Source: a virus
Lineage: Duplodnaviria; Heunggongvirae; Uroviricota; Caudoviricetes
IMG/VR virus record: IMGVR_UViG_2675903413_000005
DNA length: 22,174 bases
Direction: 5' to 3' (one strand)
The position numbers and the translations under genes are program-made. Positions 4,773-17,250 of this stretch are shown piece by piece. The notes below the pieces were generated by a model. The model ran no database searches, had not been told where the DNA came from, and saw only the letters and a program-made list of their open reading frames with translations. How positions within the stretch are numbered: the first letter of the stretch is position 1; the number at the start of each line of letters is the position of its first letter.

Positions 4773-5195
4773 GTGGCAAAAGTTTTTACACAAGAAGAGC
4801 GGGAAAAAATTAAATGGCAGGTGGTGGAACTCGTGCGCCAGAGCGGCCGTGAGACGTTACGGCAACTGGAAGCTAAAACAGGTGCGACTAGATATCTGAT
4901 GAGCGTTCTTGCCAGAGAGCTGGTAGCCAGTGGCGATGTATACAACTCCGGCTACGGGTTATTCCCCTCTGAACAGGCGCGTAAGGACTGGCAAAACGCC
5001 CGCAAAAAACTCTCGAGGGCAAAGGTGAAGAAACCTGCTGTGGTTGATCCGGACCTTATCTGGTCATCACCTGACGGAGAAATACGTCGCTACGACAGTC
5101 GCCTAAACATAATCTGTCGCGAGTGCCGGAAGAGCGAAGTTATGCAGCGCATACTGGCTTTCTATCAGGGTAATTTTCAGGACGTGGCGCAGTGA
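4773..5195 (+). CDS. Hypothetical 140-aa protein, possible HTH DNA-binding protein, translationally coupled to the downstream methyltransferase
   Basis: GTG start at 4773 with AAGGGGG Shine-Dalgarno at 4763-4769; stop overlaps the next start (GTGA at 5192-5195); N-terminal region RETLRQLEAKTGATRYLMSVLARELV is helix-turn-helix-like. Confidence 0.6.
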   Translation: MAKVFTQEEREKIKWQVVELVRQSGRETLRQLEAKTGATRYLMSVLARELVASGDVYNSGYGLFPSEQARKDWQNARKKLSRAKVKKPAVVDPDLIWSSPDGEIRRYDSRLNIICRECRKSEVMQRILAFYQGNFQDVAQ

Positions 5196-6446: not shown

Positions 6447-6700
6447 ATTAATGGATTAACTATGTCGGTTAAACGACCAGCCAACTGAAAAAGCGGAAAC
6501 CTGATTACAGGTTGCCAGATAAGGCAATGAGCTACCTGGCGCGGAACGGACTGATAAGTATGGGGAATGTTTTACGATGAACCTTTAGACTAAAGAGTTT
6601 GTAACGCTATGTAAGTGATTTTTTCTGGTTTAGATATTTATATGTCCGGCCAAATTGAGGTGTGTTTAAATGTAATTGCACATTGATTGTAGGAGGAATA

Positions 6701-6880
6701 ATGAAAAACGCATTGCAGTTTTTGTTTGTTGCGTTCTGGTTGTTCGCATCATGTATGCCCATCATCTTCACAGCAAGGTATATGGAAAAAGTTGATGTTT
6801 TGATATTAATATTTGGATATATAAATGCCCTTTTTTTAGGGGTGTTCATGGCGGTCATGTGCATTGAATACTGGCGGTAA
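6701..6880 (+). CDS. Small hydrophobic membrane protein with two predicted transmembrane helices (59 aa)
   Basis: Canonical AGGAGG Shine-Dalgarno 6 nt before ATG 6701; MKNALQFLFVAFWLFASCMPIIFTARYMEKVDVLILIFGYINALFLGVFMAVMCIEYWR; AT-rich codon usage unlike its neighbours. Confidence 0.6.
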   Translation: MKNALQFLFVAFWLFASCMPIIFTARYMEKVDVLILIFGYINALFLGVFMAVMCIEYWR

Positions 6881-7186
6881 ATACAGCGAACTCCATTGGT
6901 TTAGTTGGATATTTACTGTGCTGGACAAAAACGGTTTGCGGGGAAATCTTAGTTAAGTAGAATGACTGCGGGTGCTTGAGGCTATCTGCCTCGGGCATGG
7001 ACACCAACGGCAGATAGAGAAAAGCCCCAGTTAACATTACGCGTCCTGCAAGACGCTTAACATTAATCTGAGGCCAATTTCATGCTAGACACATGTAGGT
7101 TAGCCTCTTACGTGCCGAAAGGCACGGAGAAGCAGGCTATTGTTAACACCAAGCTGTAATGTCCCCTTTGAACCATTCTAAAATGT

Positions 7187-7213
7187 CCCCAGACAATTCT
7201 CTGGGGGATTTTT
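7187..7213 (+). promoter_or_regulatory. Terminator-like hairpin (CCCCAGA caattc TCTGGGG + TTTTT) ending 2 nt before the transposase ATG and containing its GGGGGA ribosome-binding site
   Basis: 7-bp GC-rich stem 7187-7193 / 7200-7206, T-run 7209-7213, ATG at 7215; would block read-through transcription and sequester the RBS. Confidence 0.5.
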
Positions 7214-7214
7214 C

Positions 7215-8528
7215 ATGATCAAAGAGACTGTTACGATGAGTCATAAGGAACTCCACCGACTTCAGATTATTCAGGAACAAGCTGCGGCACGCATTGGCAT
7301 TTCTATTCGGCAGGTTAAACGTCTGGTGCAACGGTATAGAAATGAAGGGCCTTCTGGTCTGGTTTCCCACCGACGTGGAAAGCGTCCTAATAATTCCTTT
7401 TCTACTGAATTCAGAGCAACAGTAATTTCACTCCTCAAAGGCCGTTACGCTGATTTTGGACCTACGTTTGCGTGCGAAAAATTGCGCGAGATACACGGTT
7501 TATCTTTATCCGTTGAAACTCTCAGAAAGTGGATGATAGAAGAGGGGTTATGGCGTGAACGCCGTCGTAAAATTGCCCGTATATATCAACGCCGCATGCG
7601 ACGACCATCTTACGGTGAACTGATCCAGATTGATGGCTCACCTCATGACTGGTTTGAAAATCGAGGCCCCAGATGTACACTGATCGTTTTCATTGATGAT
7701 GCCACCAGTGCGTTGATGGCGTTGCGTTTTGTGCCTGCTGAAACAACCCGGGCTTACATGGAAACCCTCCGGGGTTACCTTAATGATCATGGCGTACCGC
7801 TCGCTCTCTACTCTGATAGACACAGTATATTCAGGGTAAATAACCCAGAGCGGGAAGGTGAGCTGACCCAGTTCACTCGTGCGATAAAGACACTGGGCAT
7901 CGAGCCAATCCATGCCAACAGCCCGCAGGCAAAAGGGCGGGTAGAGCGCGCCAATCAGACACTACAGGACAGGCTGGTCAAAGAAATGCGGCTTCAGAAT
8001 ATCAGTGATATTGAAACAGCAAATGCATGGTTGCCGACCTTTATTGAAGCCTATAACAACCGATTCGCTACGTCGCCTCGTACTACTGATAATGCTCATC
8101 TTGATGTGCACCATTCTGAAGAGGAACTGGGTTATATCTTCAGCCTACAGGCGAAGCGCGTTCTGTCTAAAAATCTCACTTTCCAGTACAAAAGCAGTGC
8201 GTTTCAGGTACGCAGTGAGGGCCGGGGATATCGACTTAGGCATTCGGTTGTTACTGTATGCGAGAACTTTGACGGTGAAATTAACGTTCTGTATGACGGG
8301 AAAGCGCTGGGCTGGGAAAAGTATGTTGATGGCCCGGAGCCTATACCACTGGATGATGAAAAGAGTGTCCATGAACGAGTGGATAATGCCCGTATTGATT
8401 TACGCTCAAAATACTATGTTAAACCTAAAGCTGACCATCCCTGGCTTACGCGCCGAACGCAAAGTCATCAGCAAGTTAAGCCCCCGAAGTTACCTAAAAA
8501 GAAGCCTGATCCCGATAAAAAAGATTGA
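7215..8528 (+). CDS. DDE transposase, rve (integrase-core) superfamily, IS481/ISNCY-like
   Basis: 437-aa ORF; N-terminal HTH-like region; DDE triad in typical context (LIQIDGSPHDW ... LYSDRHSIF ... ANSPQAKGRVERANQTLQDRL); single uninterrupted ORF. Confidence 0.85.
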   Translation: MIKETVTMSHKELHRLQIIQEQAAARIGISIRQVKRLVQRYRNEGPSGLVSHRRGKRPNNSFSTEFRATVISLLKGRYADFGPTFACEKLREIHGLSLSVETLRKWMIEEGLWRERRRKIARIYQRRMRRPSYGELIQIDGSPHDWFENRGPRCTLIVFIDDATSALMALRFVPAETTRAYMETLRGYLNDHGVPLALYSDRHSIFRVNNPEREGELTQFTRAIKTLGIEPIHANSPQAKGRVERANQTLQDRLVKEMRLQNISDIETANAWLPTFIEAYNNRFATSPRTTDNAHLDVHHSEEELGYIFSLQAKRVLSKNLTFQYKSSAFQVRSEGRGYRLRHSVVTVCENFDGEINVLYDGKALGWEKYVDGPEPIPLDDEKSVHERVDNARIDLRSKYYVKPKADHPWLTRRTQSHQQVKPPKLPKKKPDPDKKD

Positions 8529-8924
8529 AACCAAGATCGATTCGGTTGAGTGCATATCCATTCATAGGGTAGATTCTTAAGTCGCGTTTCTGGTGTTCAT
8601 TTTCGGGTGGTTTGTTACTTGTTTTACCGGGGATATGCCAGAAACGCGCTGAGTCAGTCTGGGCGGTGCGCGTAATGAGGCGTTATGGTAAATAGCCTAT
8701 GCTAATGTCCGCTAAGAGCAAGAAGCGGAAGTTGGCAGTTTTGTGGACTGTCCCCACAAAAGTGACTACAGAAATAGTTGCAATTCATAATTGATCATGG
8801 GTTGTCAGTTAAACTCGTGGCGATTTAAATAGACTAATTGGGAGTGCGTCCATTACTTATATCTTGTAATGTTAACTATCAGAAATGATACAAAGATAAT
8901 ATGTCTTTAAAGAAAAGGCTGATG

Positions 8925-8950
8925 GCGAAAAGTGGCCCGATGAGGGCCAC
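8925..8950 (-). terminator. Rho-independent terminator of flxA
   Basis: On the minus strand: stem GTGGCCC / GGGCCAC (8932-8938 / 8944-8950), 5-nt loop, followed by TTTTCGC; about 15 nt downstream of the flxA stop. Confidence 0.6.
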
Positions 8951-8964
8951 AATACGGCTGTCAC

Positions 8965-9297
8965 TTAGACGTAAATATCAATGGTGCCAGCGGTATTTGT
9001 ATCGTCTTTTTTCTCTTCTTTTTTATCAGGCTGAACTGTCGCGTCTTCATTCTTTTTCTCTGCCTGCTGCCTTAACAACTGCTCCAGTTGAGCCCAGAGG
9101 CTTTCAATTTGCTTCTGTACCAATGCAGCCATTTCTTTTTTCTGCTGTGTCGTCATCCCCTCTTCCGATGAGATTTTCCCAAGCTTTTCAGTCAGCACCT
9201 GAATTTGTCTTGTGATTTTGGCTATTTCTGATGTTCCTTCCGGGGCGGAGTTGTTTGAAATAACGGTTGAGGTATTTCCCTGAATTGTGACAGACAT
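8965..9297 (-). CDS. flxA: FlxA (sigma-28 / FliA-regulated protein of Qin-type prophages)
   Basis: 110-aa ORF MSVTIQGNTSTVISNNSAPEGTSEIAKITRQIQVLTEKL...; AAGGAG Shine-Dalgarno; consensus sigma-28 promoter immediately upstream. Confidence 0.8.
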   Translation of the reverse strand: MSVTIQGNTSTVISNNSAPEGTSEIAKITRQIQVLTEKLGKISSEEGMTTQQKKEMAALVQKQIESLWAQLEQLLRQQAEKKNEDATVQPDKKEEKKDDTNTAGTIDIYV

Positions 9298-9320
9298 AGA
9301 TTTCTCCTTTTAAAAAAGCA

Positions 9321-9347
9321 CTATCGGCATGCACAAAAAAATCTTTA
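9321..9347 (-). promoter_or_regulatory. Sigma-28 (FliA) promoter of flxA
   Basis: Minus strand reads TAAAGATT - 11 nt - GCCGATAG, against consensus TAAAGTTT-N11-GCCGATAA; about 25-50 nt upstream of the flxA start. Confidence 0.7.
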
Positions 9348-9499
9348 ATCGTATTTCTTGTGTCATTAATTGTTTGATGTTCAGATTGTTTTCCTCGCGG
9401 GCTGGCGCGCCTCAGAAAGTAAAGCTTGTTGACAGGGGTAAACGTTCGGCAATAATTTTCTGCCGCATGCGGGTGTTGCATAAAACGTGTTACGTTCCT

Positions 9500-9805
9500 T
9501 TATCGACAGGTCAGGTCACCGCTCACCCGCCGACGAGAAAGCAACACTGACATGCTAAAGCAAAAAATAGATGAATAAGTTGAGTTGTGCATATGTAGCC
9601 TGACCGTCACAAAGTATATGGTGTCTGTACCAGTAAGATGATGGCCGGACTCTTTAAAAACGAGCTGACCTGCACAATACAGGATGGACTTAGCAATGGC
9701 TGCTCCTGGCACAAAGCGGACAGTGATCACCGTTCTTACGACTACTTTCTGACTTCCTTCGTGACTTGCCCTAAGCATGTTGTAGTGCGATACTTGTAAT
9801 GACAT
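9500..9805 (-). CDS. Hypothetical 101-aa ORF in the position occupied by ydfV in K-12 Qin
   Basis: ORF-track entry only; composition not strongly protein-like; would be divergent from relB and overlap the relO region. Confidence 0.25.
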   Translation of the reverse strand: MSLQVSHYNMLRASHEGSQKVVVRTVITVRFVPGAAIAKSILYCAGQLVFKESGHHLTGTDTIYFVTVRLHMHNSTYSSIFCFSMSVLLSRRRVSGDLTCR

Positions 9806-9818
9806 TTGTAATTACAAG
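9793..9818 (+). promoter_or_regulatory. relBE operator (relO) repeats overlapping the relB promoter
   Basis: CTTGTAAT gacatttgta ATTACAAG: perfect 8-nt inverted repeat plus a second direct TTGTAAT copy; 12 nt upstream of the relB ATG. Confidence 0.7.
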
Positions 9819-9829
9819 AGGTGTAAGAC

Positions 9830-10069
9830 ATGGGTAGCATTAACCTGCGTATTGACGATGAACTTAAAGCGCGTTCTTACGCCGCGCTTGAAAAAATGGG
9901 TGTAACTCCTTCTGAAGCGCTTCGTCTCATGCTCGAGTATATCGCTGACAATGAACGCTTGCCGTTCAAACAGACACTCCTGAGTGATGAAGATGCTGAA
10001 CTTGTGGAGATAGTGAAAGAACGGCTTCGTAATCCTAAGCCAGTACGTGTGACGCTGGATGAACTCTGA
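9830..10069 (+). CDS. relB: RelB antitoxin
   Basis: 79-aa ORF MGSINLRIDDELKARSYAALEKMGVTPSEALRLMLEYIADNERLPFKQ...; stop overlaps the relE start (TGATG). Confidence 0.9.
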   Translation: MGSINLRIDDELKARSYAALEKMGVTPSEALRLMLEYIADNERLPFKQTLLSDEDAELVEIVKERLRNPKPVRVTLDEL

Positions 10070-10356
10070 TGGCGTATTTTCTGGATTTTGACGAGCGGGC
10101 ACTAAAGGAATGGCGAAAGCTGGGCTCGACGGTACGTGAACAGTTGAAAAAGAAGCTGGTTGAAGTACTTGAGTCACCCCGGATTGAAGCAAACAAGCTC
10201 CGTGGTATGCCTGATTGTTACAAGATTAAGCTCCGGTCTTCAGGCTATCGCCTTGTATACCAGGTTATAGACGAGAAAGTTGTCGTTTTCGTGATTTCTG
10301 TTGGGAAAAGAGAACGCTCGGAAGTATATAGCGAGGCGGTCAAACGCATTCTCTGA
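10069..10356 (+). CDS. relE: RelE mRNA-interferase toxin
   Basis: 95-aa ORF MAYFLDFDERALKEWRKLGSTVREQLKKKLVEVLESPRIEANKLRGMPDCYKIKLRSSGYRLVYQVIDEKVVVFVISVGKRERSEVY... Confidence 0.9.
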   Translation: MAYFLDFDERALKEWRKLGSTVREQLKKKLVEVLESPRIEANKLRGMPDCYKIKLRSSGYRLVYQVIDEKVVVFVISVGKRERSEVYSEAVKRIL

Positions 10357-10427
10357 ACCAAAGCATGACATCTCTGTTTCGCACCGAAGGTGACACTTCT
10401 GCTTTGCGTTGACAGGAGAAGCAGGCT

Positions 10428-10583
10428 ATGAAGCAGCAAAAGGCGATGTTAATCGCCCTGATCGTCATCTGTTTAACCGTCATAGTGACGGCACTGGTAA
10501 CGAGGAAAGACCTCTGCGAGGTACGAATCCGAACCGGCCAGACGGAGGTCGCTGTCTTCACAGCTTACGAACCTGAGGAGTAA
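10428..10583 (+). CDS. hokD: Hok-family membrane toxin HokD (RelF), third gene of the relBE operon
   Basis: 51-aa ORF not in the ORF track: MKQQKAMLIALIVICLTVIVTALVTRKDLCEVRIRTGQTEVAVFTAYEPEE; single transmembrane helix plus conserved Hok C-terminus. Confidence 0.85.
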   Translation: MKQQKAMLIALIVICLTVIVTALVTRKDLCEVRIRTGQTEVAVFTAYEPEE

Positions 10584-12150: not shown

Positions 12151-12450
12151 AAAAATTCCTTAATACTGATAACTTGGCGCACTATACACACGTTCCTGAA
12201 GAAAGCTATAGTTTTTTGATGGGGTTGAAGATGGCTGGATGTCTAAAATAAACATTGCTTCATATGTTCAACTATGCGTTAATGATTGCGTCGGTTTGAA
12301 GAACAGACGATATACGAAGTAGTTTACTAAAGCAGTTCTCATTTCAGGTGTTATTCACTTATTCCTTCTTTGAGTCTCTCCAATTAAGTACGAAGTCGTT
12401 TCTGTTATGCAAACCATTTATGCCGAAAGGCTCAAGTTAAGGAATGTAGA

Positions 12451-12666
12451 ATGTCAAATAAAATGACTGGTTTAGTAAAATGGTTTAACGCTGATAAAGG
12501 TTTCGGCTTTATTTCTCCTGTTGATGGTAGTAAAGATGTGTTTGTGCATTTTTCTGCGATTCAGAATGATAATTATCGAACCTTATTTGAAGGTCAAAAG
12601 GTTACCTTCTCTATAGAGAGTGGTGCTAAAGGTCCTGCAGCAGCAAATGTCATCATTACTGATTAA
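12451..12666 (+). CDS. cspB: Cold-shock protein CspB-like
   Basis: 71-aa [74 protein letters not shown] with RNP motifs; long AT-rich 5' leader (12151-12450). Confidence 0.9.
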
Positions 12667-12947
12667 AATTCATCGCTCGTCTGTATACGATAACGAAGAA
12701 GGCTGATGCCTGAGTAGAGATACGGACAGAGTAGTGAATATTGGATCTCTTTAATAAAAAGTAAGGAGGTCCAATACATGAAACAATGGCTAGCATATTT
12801 GGCAAAATCTTAATCAGGAAAAGTATGCTAACCATTGTGGTGAAGTGCAGGTTTGCTGCATGAATAGTTTTACAGCAGAAGCTAACTGCTGGCATGGCAA
12901 AACAAAGTGCGTAAGTGGATGACTCCCACAAAAAGCACCACAATCTC

Positions 12948-14975: not shown

Positions 14976-15337
14976 GGTAATATTAAATCGGAACATTTAC
15001 ATCGCGGAATGTAAAATTTAAATAAAAAGGACTCTTCCATGAGCCAAAATTCCTGAAATCTTAAGGGTAAGATAAAAGGTCTTAATCAGAATGACACGTT
15101 TTATTAATAAATAAAGCTATTCTTTCATTGCTGTGTTTTTCTTTACAAAAGTAATCCTTGCTATGGGTGGTTAATCATGCGTTAATGGTGTTCTGGTTTG
15201 TTACAAATTTATCTGAAGCAGTCATTGTTATAATTTTATTATTTGTACCTCTTGAGATTTCCTTGTTGGTTTTTCTCTCTGATATTTTTTTTCGGACCAT
15301 TCTGCCCAAGGGCTAATTTCTTCAAAAGGTAATAATT

Positions 15338-15550
15338 ATGTCTAACAAAATGACTGGTTTAGTGAAATGGTTTAACCCTGAAAAAGGTTTTGGTTTCATC
15401 ACGCCGAAAGATGGCAGCAAAGATGTGTTTGTCCATTTCTCAGCAATTCAGAGCAACGATTTCAAAACATTAACTGAGAATCAGGAAGTTGAATTTGGTA
15501 TTGAGAACGGACCTAAAGGTCCTGCCGCTGTTCATGTAGTGGCGCTTTGA
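15338..15550 (+). CDS. cspI: Cold-shock protein CspI-like
   Basis: 70-aa [73 protein letters not shown]; long AT-rich leader (14976-15337). Confidence 0.9.
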
Positions 15551-15754
15551 GGTAGACAATATTACAAACCATATTCACTTTAGATGCCCGTGTTGTCATG
15601 GTTCCCAGTATAGAACATCATCTTTTGATGTTTCTGACATGAATCCTTTCGGGGCAAAATGTATCTTTTGTAAATCAATGATGATTACATTTGATAATAT
15701 TTCACAATACTTAAATGCCAGCCGTCTGTCGTTGGATTTAAAAAAGTGAAAATG

Positions 15755-17016: not shown

Positions 17017-17250
17017 TCAATCTGGTCTGACCTGTTTTCTGAGCAATTCAGTAATGTCACTCTTTTCTTTGTTTGCTTCAGAAGAAACTCTTTTTTCTGA
17101 GCACAGTCTCCGGCGGCAGGCTTCAATGACCCAGGCTGAGAAATTCCCGGACCCTTTTTGCTCAAGAGCGATGTTAATTTGTTCAATCATTTGGTTAGGA
17201 AAGCGGATGTTGCGGGTTGTTGTTCTGCGGGTTCTGTTCTTCGTTGACAT
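17017..17250 (-). CDS. ynfO: YnfO-like small basic protein
   Basis: 77-aa ORF adjacent to the cos region, in the position of ynfO in K-12 Qin. Confidence 0.65.
   Translation of the reverse strand: MSTKNRTRRTTTRNIRFPNQMIEQINIALEQKGSGNFSAWVIEACRRRLCSEKRVSSEANKEKSDITELLRKQVRPD

Follow-up and report, generated by a model that had tools for sequence, protein, structure and literature searches.

A relBE-carrying IS1202-family transposon interrupts a hok/sok locus at the hok start codon in a Qin-type prophage

The DNA analyzed here, IMG/VR record IMGVR_UViG_2675903413_000005 (22,174 nucleotides, one strand, referred to as the window), is an E. coli lambdoid prophage of the Qin type, with the gene order dicA, dicC ... 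flxA, ydfV, relB, relE, hokD, rem. A transposase gene starts at position 7215, and the 274 nucleotides (nt) in front of it (6941-7214) had been read in a first-pass annotation, made from the sequence alone, as one densely structured leader of that gene. We found that this region is the junction of two elements and not one leader, with a sharp break in homology at 7140/7141 between two unrelated elements. The feature itself is ordinary: a known RNA family lies beside the end of a transposon. From the evidence presented below, we are confident that the front half of a hok/sok locus has been split at the hok ATG by a transposon carrying relBE, and that insertion of this transposon recurs at hok start regions.

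The stems, repeats and hairpins listed in the first-pass annotation are all present. The perfect 9-bp stem is formed by CTATCTGCC (6982-6990) and GGCAGATAG (7009-7017) and lies within a longer inverted repeat with arms of 20 nt (6971-6990 and 7009-7028). TTAACATTA occurs twice, at 7031-7039 and 7057-7065, on either side of GCGTC/GACGC. The 39-nt hairpin at 7101-7139 has a predicted energy of -20.4 kcal/mol (z = -5.4). A further hairpin at 7186-7207, followed by ATTTTTC, is placed immediately 5′ of the transposase ATG and is the sole terminator-like site in 6880-7300, where 0.2 would be expected. When the 245 nt from 6970 to 7214 were folded together, the energy was -86.4 kcal/mol as compared with -64.1 ± 4.6 kcal/mol for shuffled sequences (z = -4.9), and none of 200 shuffles was as stable. 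Short stems are common, and such hairpins might arise by chance in AT-balanced intergenic DNA. Nevertheless, z-scores from -3.4 to -5.6, an Rfam match with an E value of 5e-23 and conservation of the features across genera leave virtually no room for this explanation. The structure of 6970-7214 exceeds chance.

To the left of the break, the region belongs to Rfam family RF01794, “sok”. In the Rfam scan, which the first-pass annotation had proposed, 6970-7141 (plus strand) matched the full model (1-157) with 104.1 bits, as compared with a gathering score of 59. This explains the region as a known element, an outcome that the annotation had named as one that would refute its reading. The consensus of the model begins with GGGUGCUUGAGG and ends with AUG. 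In two intact loci, L002 and L003 (L numbers denote related loci drawn from genomes, viral contigs, metagenomes and plasmids), the match to RF01794 lies on the strand of the hok coding sequence and ends 5 nt into it. The family model is therefore the sense leader of hok mRNA, with the Sok antisense within it. An additional “sok” match on the minus strand of the window (18.9 bits, E = 0.25) was dismissed as an echo of the palindromic stems. The first-pass annotation had left the choice between a regulatory RNA, a remnant of another element and chance. A remnant was the right choice for 6941-7140, which is a truncated hok/sok locus; it does not extend to the last 74 nt, which alone belong to the transposon and hold its left inverted repeat (IRL), two AATGTCCCC sub-repeats and the hairpin with the T-run.

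The position of the break was determined by alignment with the intact hok loci L002 and L003 (= hokD-rem-ydfU). Identity extends to ...GGAGAAGCAGGCTAT and ends inside the hok ATG. The same 15 bp return at the far end of the transposon, and the hokD open reading frame (ORF) that follows them is contiguous with the leader in L003. The empty site of L003 plus 3,274 bp plus 15 bp gives the filled site of the window. Strain ATCC 8739 has this junction too and matches the window with 100% identity over 6600-7300. The transposon entered the hok ATG between its T and its G, with a 15-bp duplication of the target. Both the Shine-Dalgarno (SD) sequence of hok and the “AT” of its ATG are within the duplication, so that the displaced hok ORF keeps its translation signals but has lost mok/Sok control. 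A contiguous Hok ORF overlapped by mok is not found in the window. With the ATG split at 7140/7141, mok cut to 25 amino acids and the hok ORF 3.3 kb away, the locus is a disrupted member of the hok/sok group. The coordinates of all features are listed in Table 1.

Table 1. Features of the interrupted hok/sok locus and of the inserted transposon, in window coordinates.
Feature	Position	Strand	Basis or remark
Putative hok promoter	-35 TTGCGG 6936-6941, -10 TAGAAT 6958-6963	+	Inferred only
hok mRNA 5′ leader, truncated inside hok ATG	6970-7140	+	Rfam RF01794; identity to intact loci ends at ...GGCTAT
5′ tac stem-loop, includes the perfect 9-bp stem	6970-7028	+	-26.8 kcal/mol, z = -3.4
Sok-like antisense RNA gene	7012-7092 (approximate, transcript ends predicted)	-	Minus-strand fold
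Truncated mok-like ORF, 25 aa	7082-7159	+	ORF list; SD GAGG 7071-7074
hok SD hairpin (“domain V-like”)	7101-7139	+	SD GGAG 7126-7129
Left copy of 15-bp target-site duplication, GGAGAAGCAGGCTAT	7126-7140		Exact 15-mer
3,274-bp IS1202-family (ISEsa1-type) transposon with relBE	7141-10414	+	Ends adjoin both duplication copies
Left inverted repeat (IRL)	7141-7168	+	21/28 positions match IRR
Hairpin and T-run over transposase SD (GGGGGA 7203-7208)	7186-7213	+	Terminator-like call
Transposase, 437 aa	7215-8528	+	NCBIfam NF033594 transpos_ISNCY_2, 456 bits vs cut-off 250
relB (9830-10069) and relE (10069-10356)	9830-10356	+	100% identical to annotated RelB/RelE of K-12 and ATCC 8739
Right inverted repeat (IRR)	10387-10414	-	No better reverse-complement match to IRL anywhere in the window
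Right copy of duplication	10415-10429		Supplies SD and “AT” of hokD ATG
Displaced hok ORF (hokD/relF, 51 aa)	10428-10583	+	ORF list; hokD annotation in K-12

These junctions bear directly on the proposal that the insertion sequence (IS) itself encodes all 274 nt, as a structured leader dedicated to the transposase or as its RNA cofactor. In favor of this, structure in the region is strong, and transcription from the hok promoter would run toward the transposase gene. Against this, the duplication and the inverted repeats fix the end of the element at 7141, and this end adjoins unrelated DNA at no fewer than 21 further junctions. The leader is also found, unchanged, before intact hok genes that have no transposase. 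The two halves also differ in conservation, since 11 hok leaders adjoining copies of the element are 59-79% identical to each other (median 66%), as compared with a median of 95% for the element ends. A single leader serving the transposase is thus extremely unlikely.

The hok leader could be divided into its known parts. The Rfam match starts 7 nt downstream of the putative hok promoter, which lies in a stretch conserved in intact locus L002. A consensus promoter scan of 6880-7300 called nothing, so the promoters assigned here to hok, sok and the transposase gene are putative. We use the published nomenclature of the hok leader, including the name “tac” (PMC9841398). Among nine leaders, the tac stem-loop has compensatory changes at two pairs, A-U to U-A in four leaders and C-G to U-A in two. 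RNAalifold on the nine leaders recovered the tac stem and parts of other stems, with double changes at only three pairs; per-sequence folds were relied on instead. The direct repeat TTAACATTA and the GCGTC hairpin between its copies make up a putative Sok hairpin (7026-7070), which is more stable on the minus strand than on the plus strand (-21.2 versus -11.9 kcal/mol, with G.U pairs). In 9 of 9 leaders of differing sequence, the minus strand was favored by 6.7-9.3 kcal/mol, as would be expected of a Sok antisense RNA. The mok-like ORF enters the transposon by 19 nt and ends there at TAA; its ATG is aligned with an ATG conserved in all leaders.

The 39-nt hairpin had been compared with domain V of a group II intron. 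It is homologous to the hok SD hairpin, whose two-tier form is kept in 13 distinct hok leaders despite differing stem sequences, such as GUUGC/GCAAC with CCGC/GCGG in L040 and CCC/GGG in L144. A remnant of domain V would agree with the AGC at positions 2-4, the GAAA loop and the two-tier stem. However, no Rfam group II intron family was matched at E ≤ 1 in 6700-9200, or even at E ≤ 10 in the 146 nt of 7085-7230. Base for base, the 39-nt element can be aligned with the hairpin of the hok SD in the intact loci and in the 13 diverse leaders, its flank is a hok leader, and the adjacent ORF encodes a DDE transposase (ISNCY/IS1202), not a reverse transcriptase. An intron origin can be set aside with near certainty, and the hairpin is best read as that of the hok SD. 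At position 7125, an A-to-C change (GGCAA to GGCAC) extends the inner stem of this hairpin (-21.0 versus -16.1 kcal/mol). The same change converts the predicted sok -35 box on the minus strand from TTGCCT to GTGCCT. A C at 7125 is present in 35 of 60 viral contigs.

To the right of the break, the transposon begins with TGTTAACACC and ends with GCGTTGACA, and carries in order the transposase gene, flxA, ydfV, relB and relE. Its 28-bp inverted repeats read TGTTAACACC... at the left and TGTCAACGCA... at the right, with the number of matching positions given in Table 1. The right inverted repeat (IRR) is similar in sequence to that of L033 and L034, two simple relatives of 1.36-1.44 kb (TGTCAATCCAATTCAGAAGTGTCCCCTT versus TGTCAACGCAAAGCAGAAGTGTCACCTT). 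Simple relatives of this kind make 15-16-bp duplications, and by its likeness to theirs the IRR beyond relBE is the genuine right end of the family. No inverted repeat was found just after the transposase gene (8530-8900), only IRL-like motifs in direct orientation. The left end holds two copies of a 19-nt sub-repeat, one at 7148-7166 and one at 7172-7190, and each has AATGTCCCC as its last part. The two AATGTCCCC sub-repeats are probably binding sites of the transposase. The compact form of the IS1202 family, a single ORF in 1.3-2 kb, is not seen here; the terms transporter IS or unit transposon, with a core from the IS1202 family, fit the element better.

Three further observations concern this element. 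The direct-orientation IRL-like sequences are at 8688-8721 and 8749-8761, with 20/34 IRL positions and the motifs TGTCCGC and TGTCCCC; the conserved left module described below ends with the first, and the second is just past this module in E. coli-specific cargo. A weak match to the IRR core at 17232-17249 (TTCTGCTTTGCGTTGACA, 3 mismatches in 18) is probably due to chance. Compared with the 3,301-bp copies L004 and L017, the transposase gene of the window has a 27-bp in-frame deletion at about 7270-7277, which removes nine amino acids (SINRHITQE) from the N-terminus of the protein and sits between short ATTCAGGA/CTCAGGA repeats.

The hairpin with a T-run that sequesters the ribosome-binding site of the transposase gene, also described in the first-pass annotation, is confirmed as part of the transposon, and its structure is kept in relatives down to about 60% transposase identity. 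Over this range, the second AATGTCCCC motif pairs with the G-rich SD in 11 relatives. The z-scores of the hairpin were -2.8 to -4.7 in 10 relatives and -1.1 in L033. In L035 and L039 there is an A-T to G-C exchange plus a G.U pair. As in the classic arrangement of an IS end, the hairpin would terminate transcripts arriving from outside, here from the hok promoter, or would occlude the SD within them. A weak internal promoter (TTGAAC 7168-7173, GACAAT 7192-7197) would start transcripts inside the hairpin and so free the SD, although this promoter was not called in the consensus scan of 6880-7300.

Independent copies with the same IRL and IRR, 2.6-14 kb in length, were found at no fewer than 10 further sites, each with its own duplication of 13-16 bp. 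These include copies of 6,093 bp in L008, L009, L012 and L013 (duplication GGAGAAGAAGGCCAT) and in L014 (GATATGCTGACAAA), and of 6,092 bp in L011 (GGAGAAGAAGCCATG). Shorter copies are present in L018 (4,600 bp, TACCAAAACAAGCCCC) and L038 (4,275 bp, CATTAAGCTGCAAAT). The longest of this set, 14,068 bp with duplication GGAGATGTATGGGTCC, is L148 on plasmid pEh5_OXA48 (NZ_CP126870.1, 83506-97573), where it is inserted in a hok-like leader. Within the loci as fetched, no IRR was found in L007, a 14-kb form that overruns its locus, in L010, which is rearranged after the cargo, or in L021 and L039.

All complete copies have in common a left module (window 7141 to about 8729) and a right module (9702-10414, with relB, relE and IRR), and the cargo between them varies. 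In E. coli the cargo is flxA and ydfV. L005 carries ISEsa2, a gene with a cytochrome b/b6 domain and a cation-diffusion transporter gene, and L148 carries ncrABCY (nickel/cobalt) and chrBA (chromate) resistance. The family carries a cation-diffusion transporter in some copies, and nickel/cobalt and chromate resistance in one. Among plasmid records, the left module was found in 831 and the right module in 784, with equal genus distribution. About 1% of the sampled enterobacterial plasmids (~800/72,556) carry the family. Plasmid matches to 8570-8729 only were considered as possible transposase-less mobile derivatives; the one examined, L147, is simply truncated by IS26.

Many of the copies are located at hok start regions. 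Rfam sok matches end exactly at IRL in L007, L011, L014, L023, L025 and L039, which are from different genera. By pattern, 24 junction clusters are hok-type, and 6 more were added by inspection (L040, L021, L161, L212, L168 and L235). Therefore about 30 of about 51 distinct junctions in the enterobacterial clade are at hok start regions, a total that leaves out distant IS species caught by the loose pattern. The right flanks of the hok insertions encode different Hok proteins. Relative to the site in the window, the register of insertion varies from -1 to +10 nt, even within one leader type, and the copy in L021 is inverted. In 8 of the 21 non-hok junctions, a GCA starts 19-21 nt before IRL, just 5′ of the duplicated segment, compared with about 1 of 21 expected by chance at that offset (binomial P about 3e-6). 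The choice of target is apparently keyed to (G)GCA(A) directly 5′ of the 15-bp duplicated segment.

We considered whether hok is targeted at all, or whether the transposon entered a hok locus once and then spread by homologous recombination via the flanking hok sequence. Conserved blocks are common to hok leaders and ORFs. L144, with a left flank derived from one hok locus and a right flank derived from hokD, shows that copies do recombine with each other. As an account of the whole pattern, however, it meets several difficulties. Both copies of the duplication match the variant of their own locus (GGAGAAGCAGGCTAT, GGAGAAGAAGGCCAT, GGAGAAGAAGCCATG, GATATGCTGACAAA and GGAGATGTATGGGTCC). The shifts in register and the inverted copy also speak against it, and GCA recurs at the same offset in non-hok sites. 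Spread by recombination from a single entry is very unlikely. The sequence comparisons argue for repeated transposition into hok start regions rather than one ancient event.

Other junctions are described here in their own right. In metagenome contigs L168 and L235, IRR, a 15-bp hok-type duplication and IRL follow in succession. These could be tandem insertions at a regenerated target or junctions of circular intermediates. In metagenome contigs L161 and L212, a different sequence ending in ...GAACTTACACA adjoins the same hok-type duplication on the left of IRL and may be the end of another element with the same target. A second recurrent non-hok target was seen in metagenome contigs L158 and L245, from two organisms, with homologous flanks ending in ...ACGGCTGGCAA(T). 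In L018, an Rfam match to isrO, an Hfq-binding small RNA, spans the IRL junction at a non-hok site (4837-4950, minus strand).

Several points weigh against our interpretation. About 40% of the junctions are outside hok loci, so the choice of hok is a preference and not a strict specificity. Public assemblies are sampled with bias, and some of the hok-type clusters may share ancestry. The consensus scan called neither the hok nor the sok promoter. With C at 7125, the predicted -35 box of sok is probably weaker, and the leader is perhaps a silent fossil for this reason. Given the nine-amino-acid deletion in its transposase, the copy in the window may be immobile; with the two changes taken together, both halves, leader and transposon, may be decaying. 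The arms of the left-end hairpin are perhaps conserved separately, the C-run maybe for transposase binding and the G-run as the SD, and a single clear compensatory exchange was seen in that hairpin. Finally, a stand-alone 1.6-kb ISEsa1 with its own ends would speak against the larger unit; no exhaustive search was made for one.

The insertion offers an explanation for the relB operon of E. coli K-12. It has put the hokD ORF, with its SD and ATG rebuilt by the duplication, directly behind relE, in the K-12 order relB-relE-hokD, and the mok/Sok control region is stranded 3.3 kb upstream of hokD. The third gene of the K-12 Qin relB operon, hokD (relF), is at the same locus in the same gene order, with identical annotated proteins. 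K-12 differs in having lost the sequence from ydfX up to window 8343, that is the hok leader, IRL and 86% of the transposase gene. What K-12 annotates as “ydfW” is the last 49 codons of the transposase ORF (window 8379-8528). Because of this deletion, the origin of the arrangement is invisible in K-12 and visible in the window. In 1999, Pedersen and Gerdes reportedly gave a “major genetic rearrangement” as the reason for the condition of hokD.

We therefore favor, with moderate confidence, a wider conclusion: that “ISEsa1” is the transposase arm of an IS1202-family transposon of 3.3-14 kb whose other arm is relBE with the true IRR, that this transposon prefers the SD/start region of hok at (G)GCA(A), and that it created the relB-relE-hokD arrangement of K-12. 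In the window, relBE of E. coli, the paradigm of type II toxin-antitoxin systems, is a built-in module of a transposon. That this transposon entered a type I toxin gene at its start codon would account for a hokD/relF that has no Sok control and lies in the relB operon. The choice of hok start regions would be a new type of target preference for the IS1202 family. In the searchable literature, with most subscription journals outside its scope, no description of the relationship between the transposon and hokD/relBE was found. As far as that literature shows, the true extent of the transposon, its fixed relBE arm and its preference for hok start regions are new. Elsewhere in the window, 12290-12682 and 15192-15577 match the Rfam cspA thermoregulator (159 and 113 bits) and are presumably leaders of prophage cold-shock genes.

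In architecture, the leader agrees with hok/sok of plasmid R1 and with the prophage homologue of E. coli O157, hokW-sokW of Sp5, as the latter is described in the literature (PMC9841398; PMC8621323). The common parts are a tac stem-loop at the 5′ end, a Sok hairpin antisense to the region where mok starts, an SD and an ATG for mok, and a hairpin that holds the SD of hok. The leader in the window differs in being severed from the toxin ORF and from fbi at the 3′ end, which precludes control by tac/fbi fold-back. Its Sok hairpin also has an extension of 16-18 nt, which was seen in the Qin/lambdoid clade only.

Members of the IS1202 family have inverted repeats starting with TGT and a conserved block near position 20 (bioRxiv 10.1101/2022.12.17.520857). 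The transposon in the window agrees with the family in its transposase, in its imperfect inverted repeats starting with TGT (~24-28 bp), which have the block near position 20 as well, and in a duplication of subgroup length (5-6, 15-17 or 27-28 bp); its 15-16 bp fit the 15-17 bp reported for the ISTde1 subgroup. In ISfinder, ISEsa1 is listed with 1,609 bp, inverted repeats of 15/22 and no detected duplication, and this lack of a duplication places it in an odd subgroup (PMC10132070). In contrast, the mobile unit found here reaches to the IRR beyond relBE and makes duplications. The 1,609 bp of ISEsa1 match the conserved left module only, which indicates that the ISfinder entry covers only part of the mobile unit.

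Position-specific insertion has precedents within the family. IS1202 members of the ISAjo2/ISAba32 type, which target dif/pdif sites of XerC/D, likewise insert in an oriented and position-specific manner beside a short, partly palindromic sequence common on plasmids, and tandem insertions are also known for them. The present transposon goes to the SD/start region of a type I toxin gene instead of a Xer site, its duplication is 15 bp instead of 5-6 bp, and the preference covers about 60% of the junctions instead of being near-absolute. The fixed position of relBE resembles that of type II toxin-antitoxin pairs in Tn3-family transposons (PMC7157771), where the pair is likewise in the conserved backbone and not in the variable cargo. 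Compared with the Tn3 family, the transposase here is of the IS1202/DDE rve type, and the toxin-antitoxin pair is placed beside the right end, from where it reads outward into the target.

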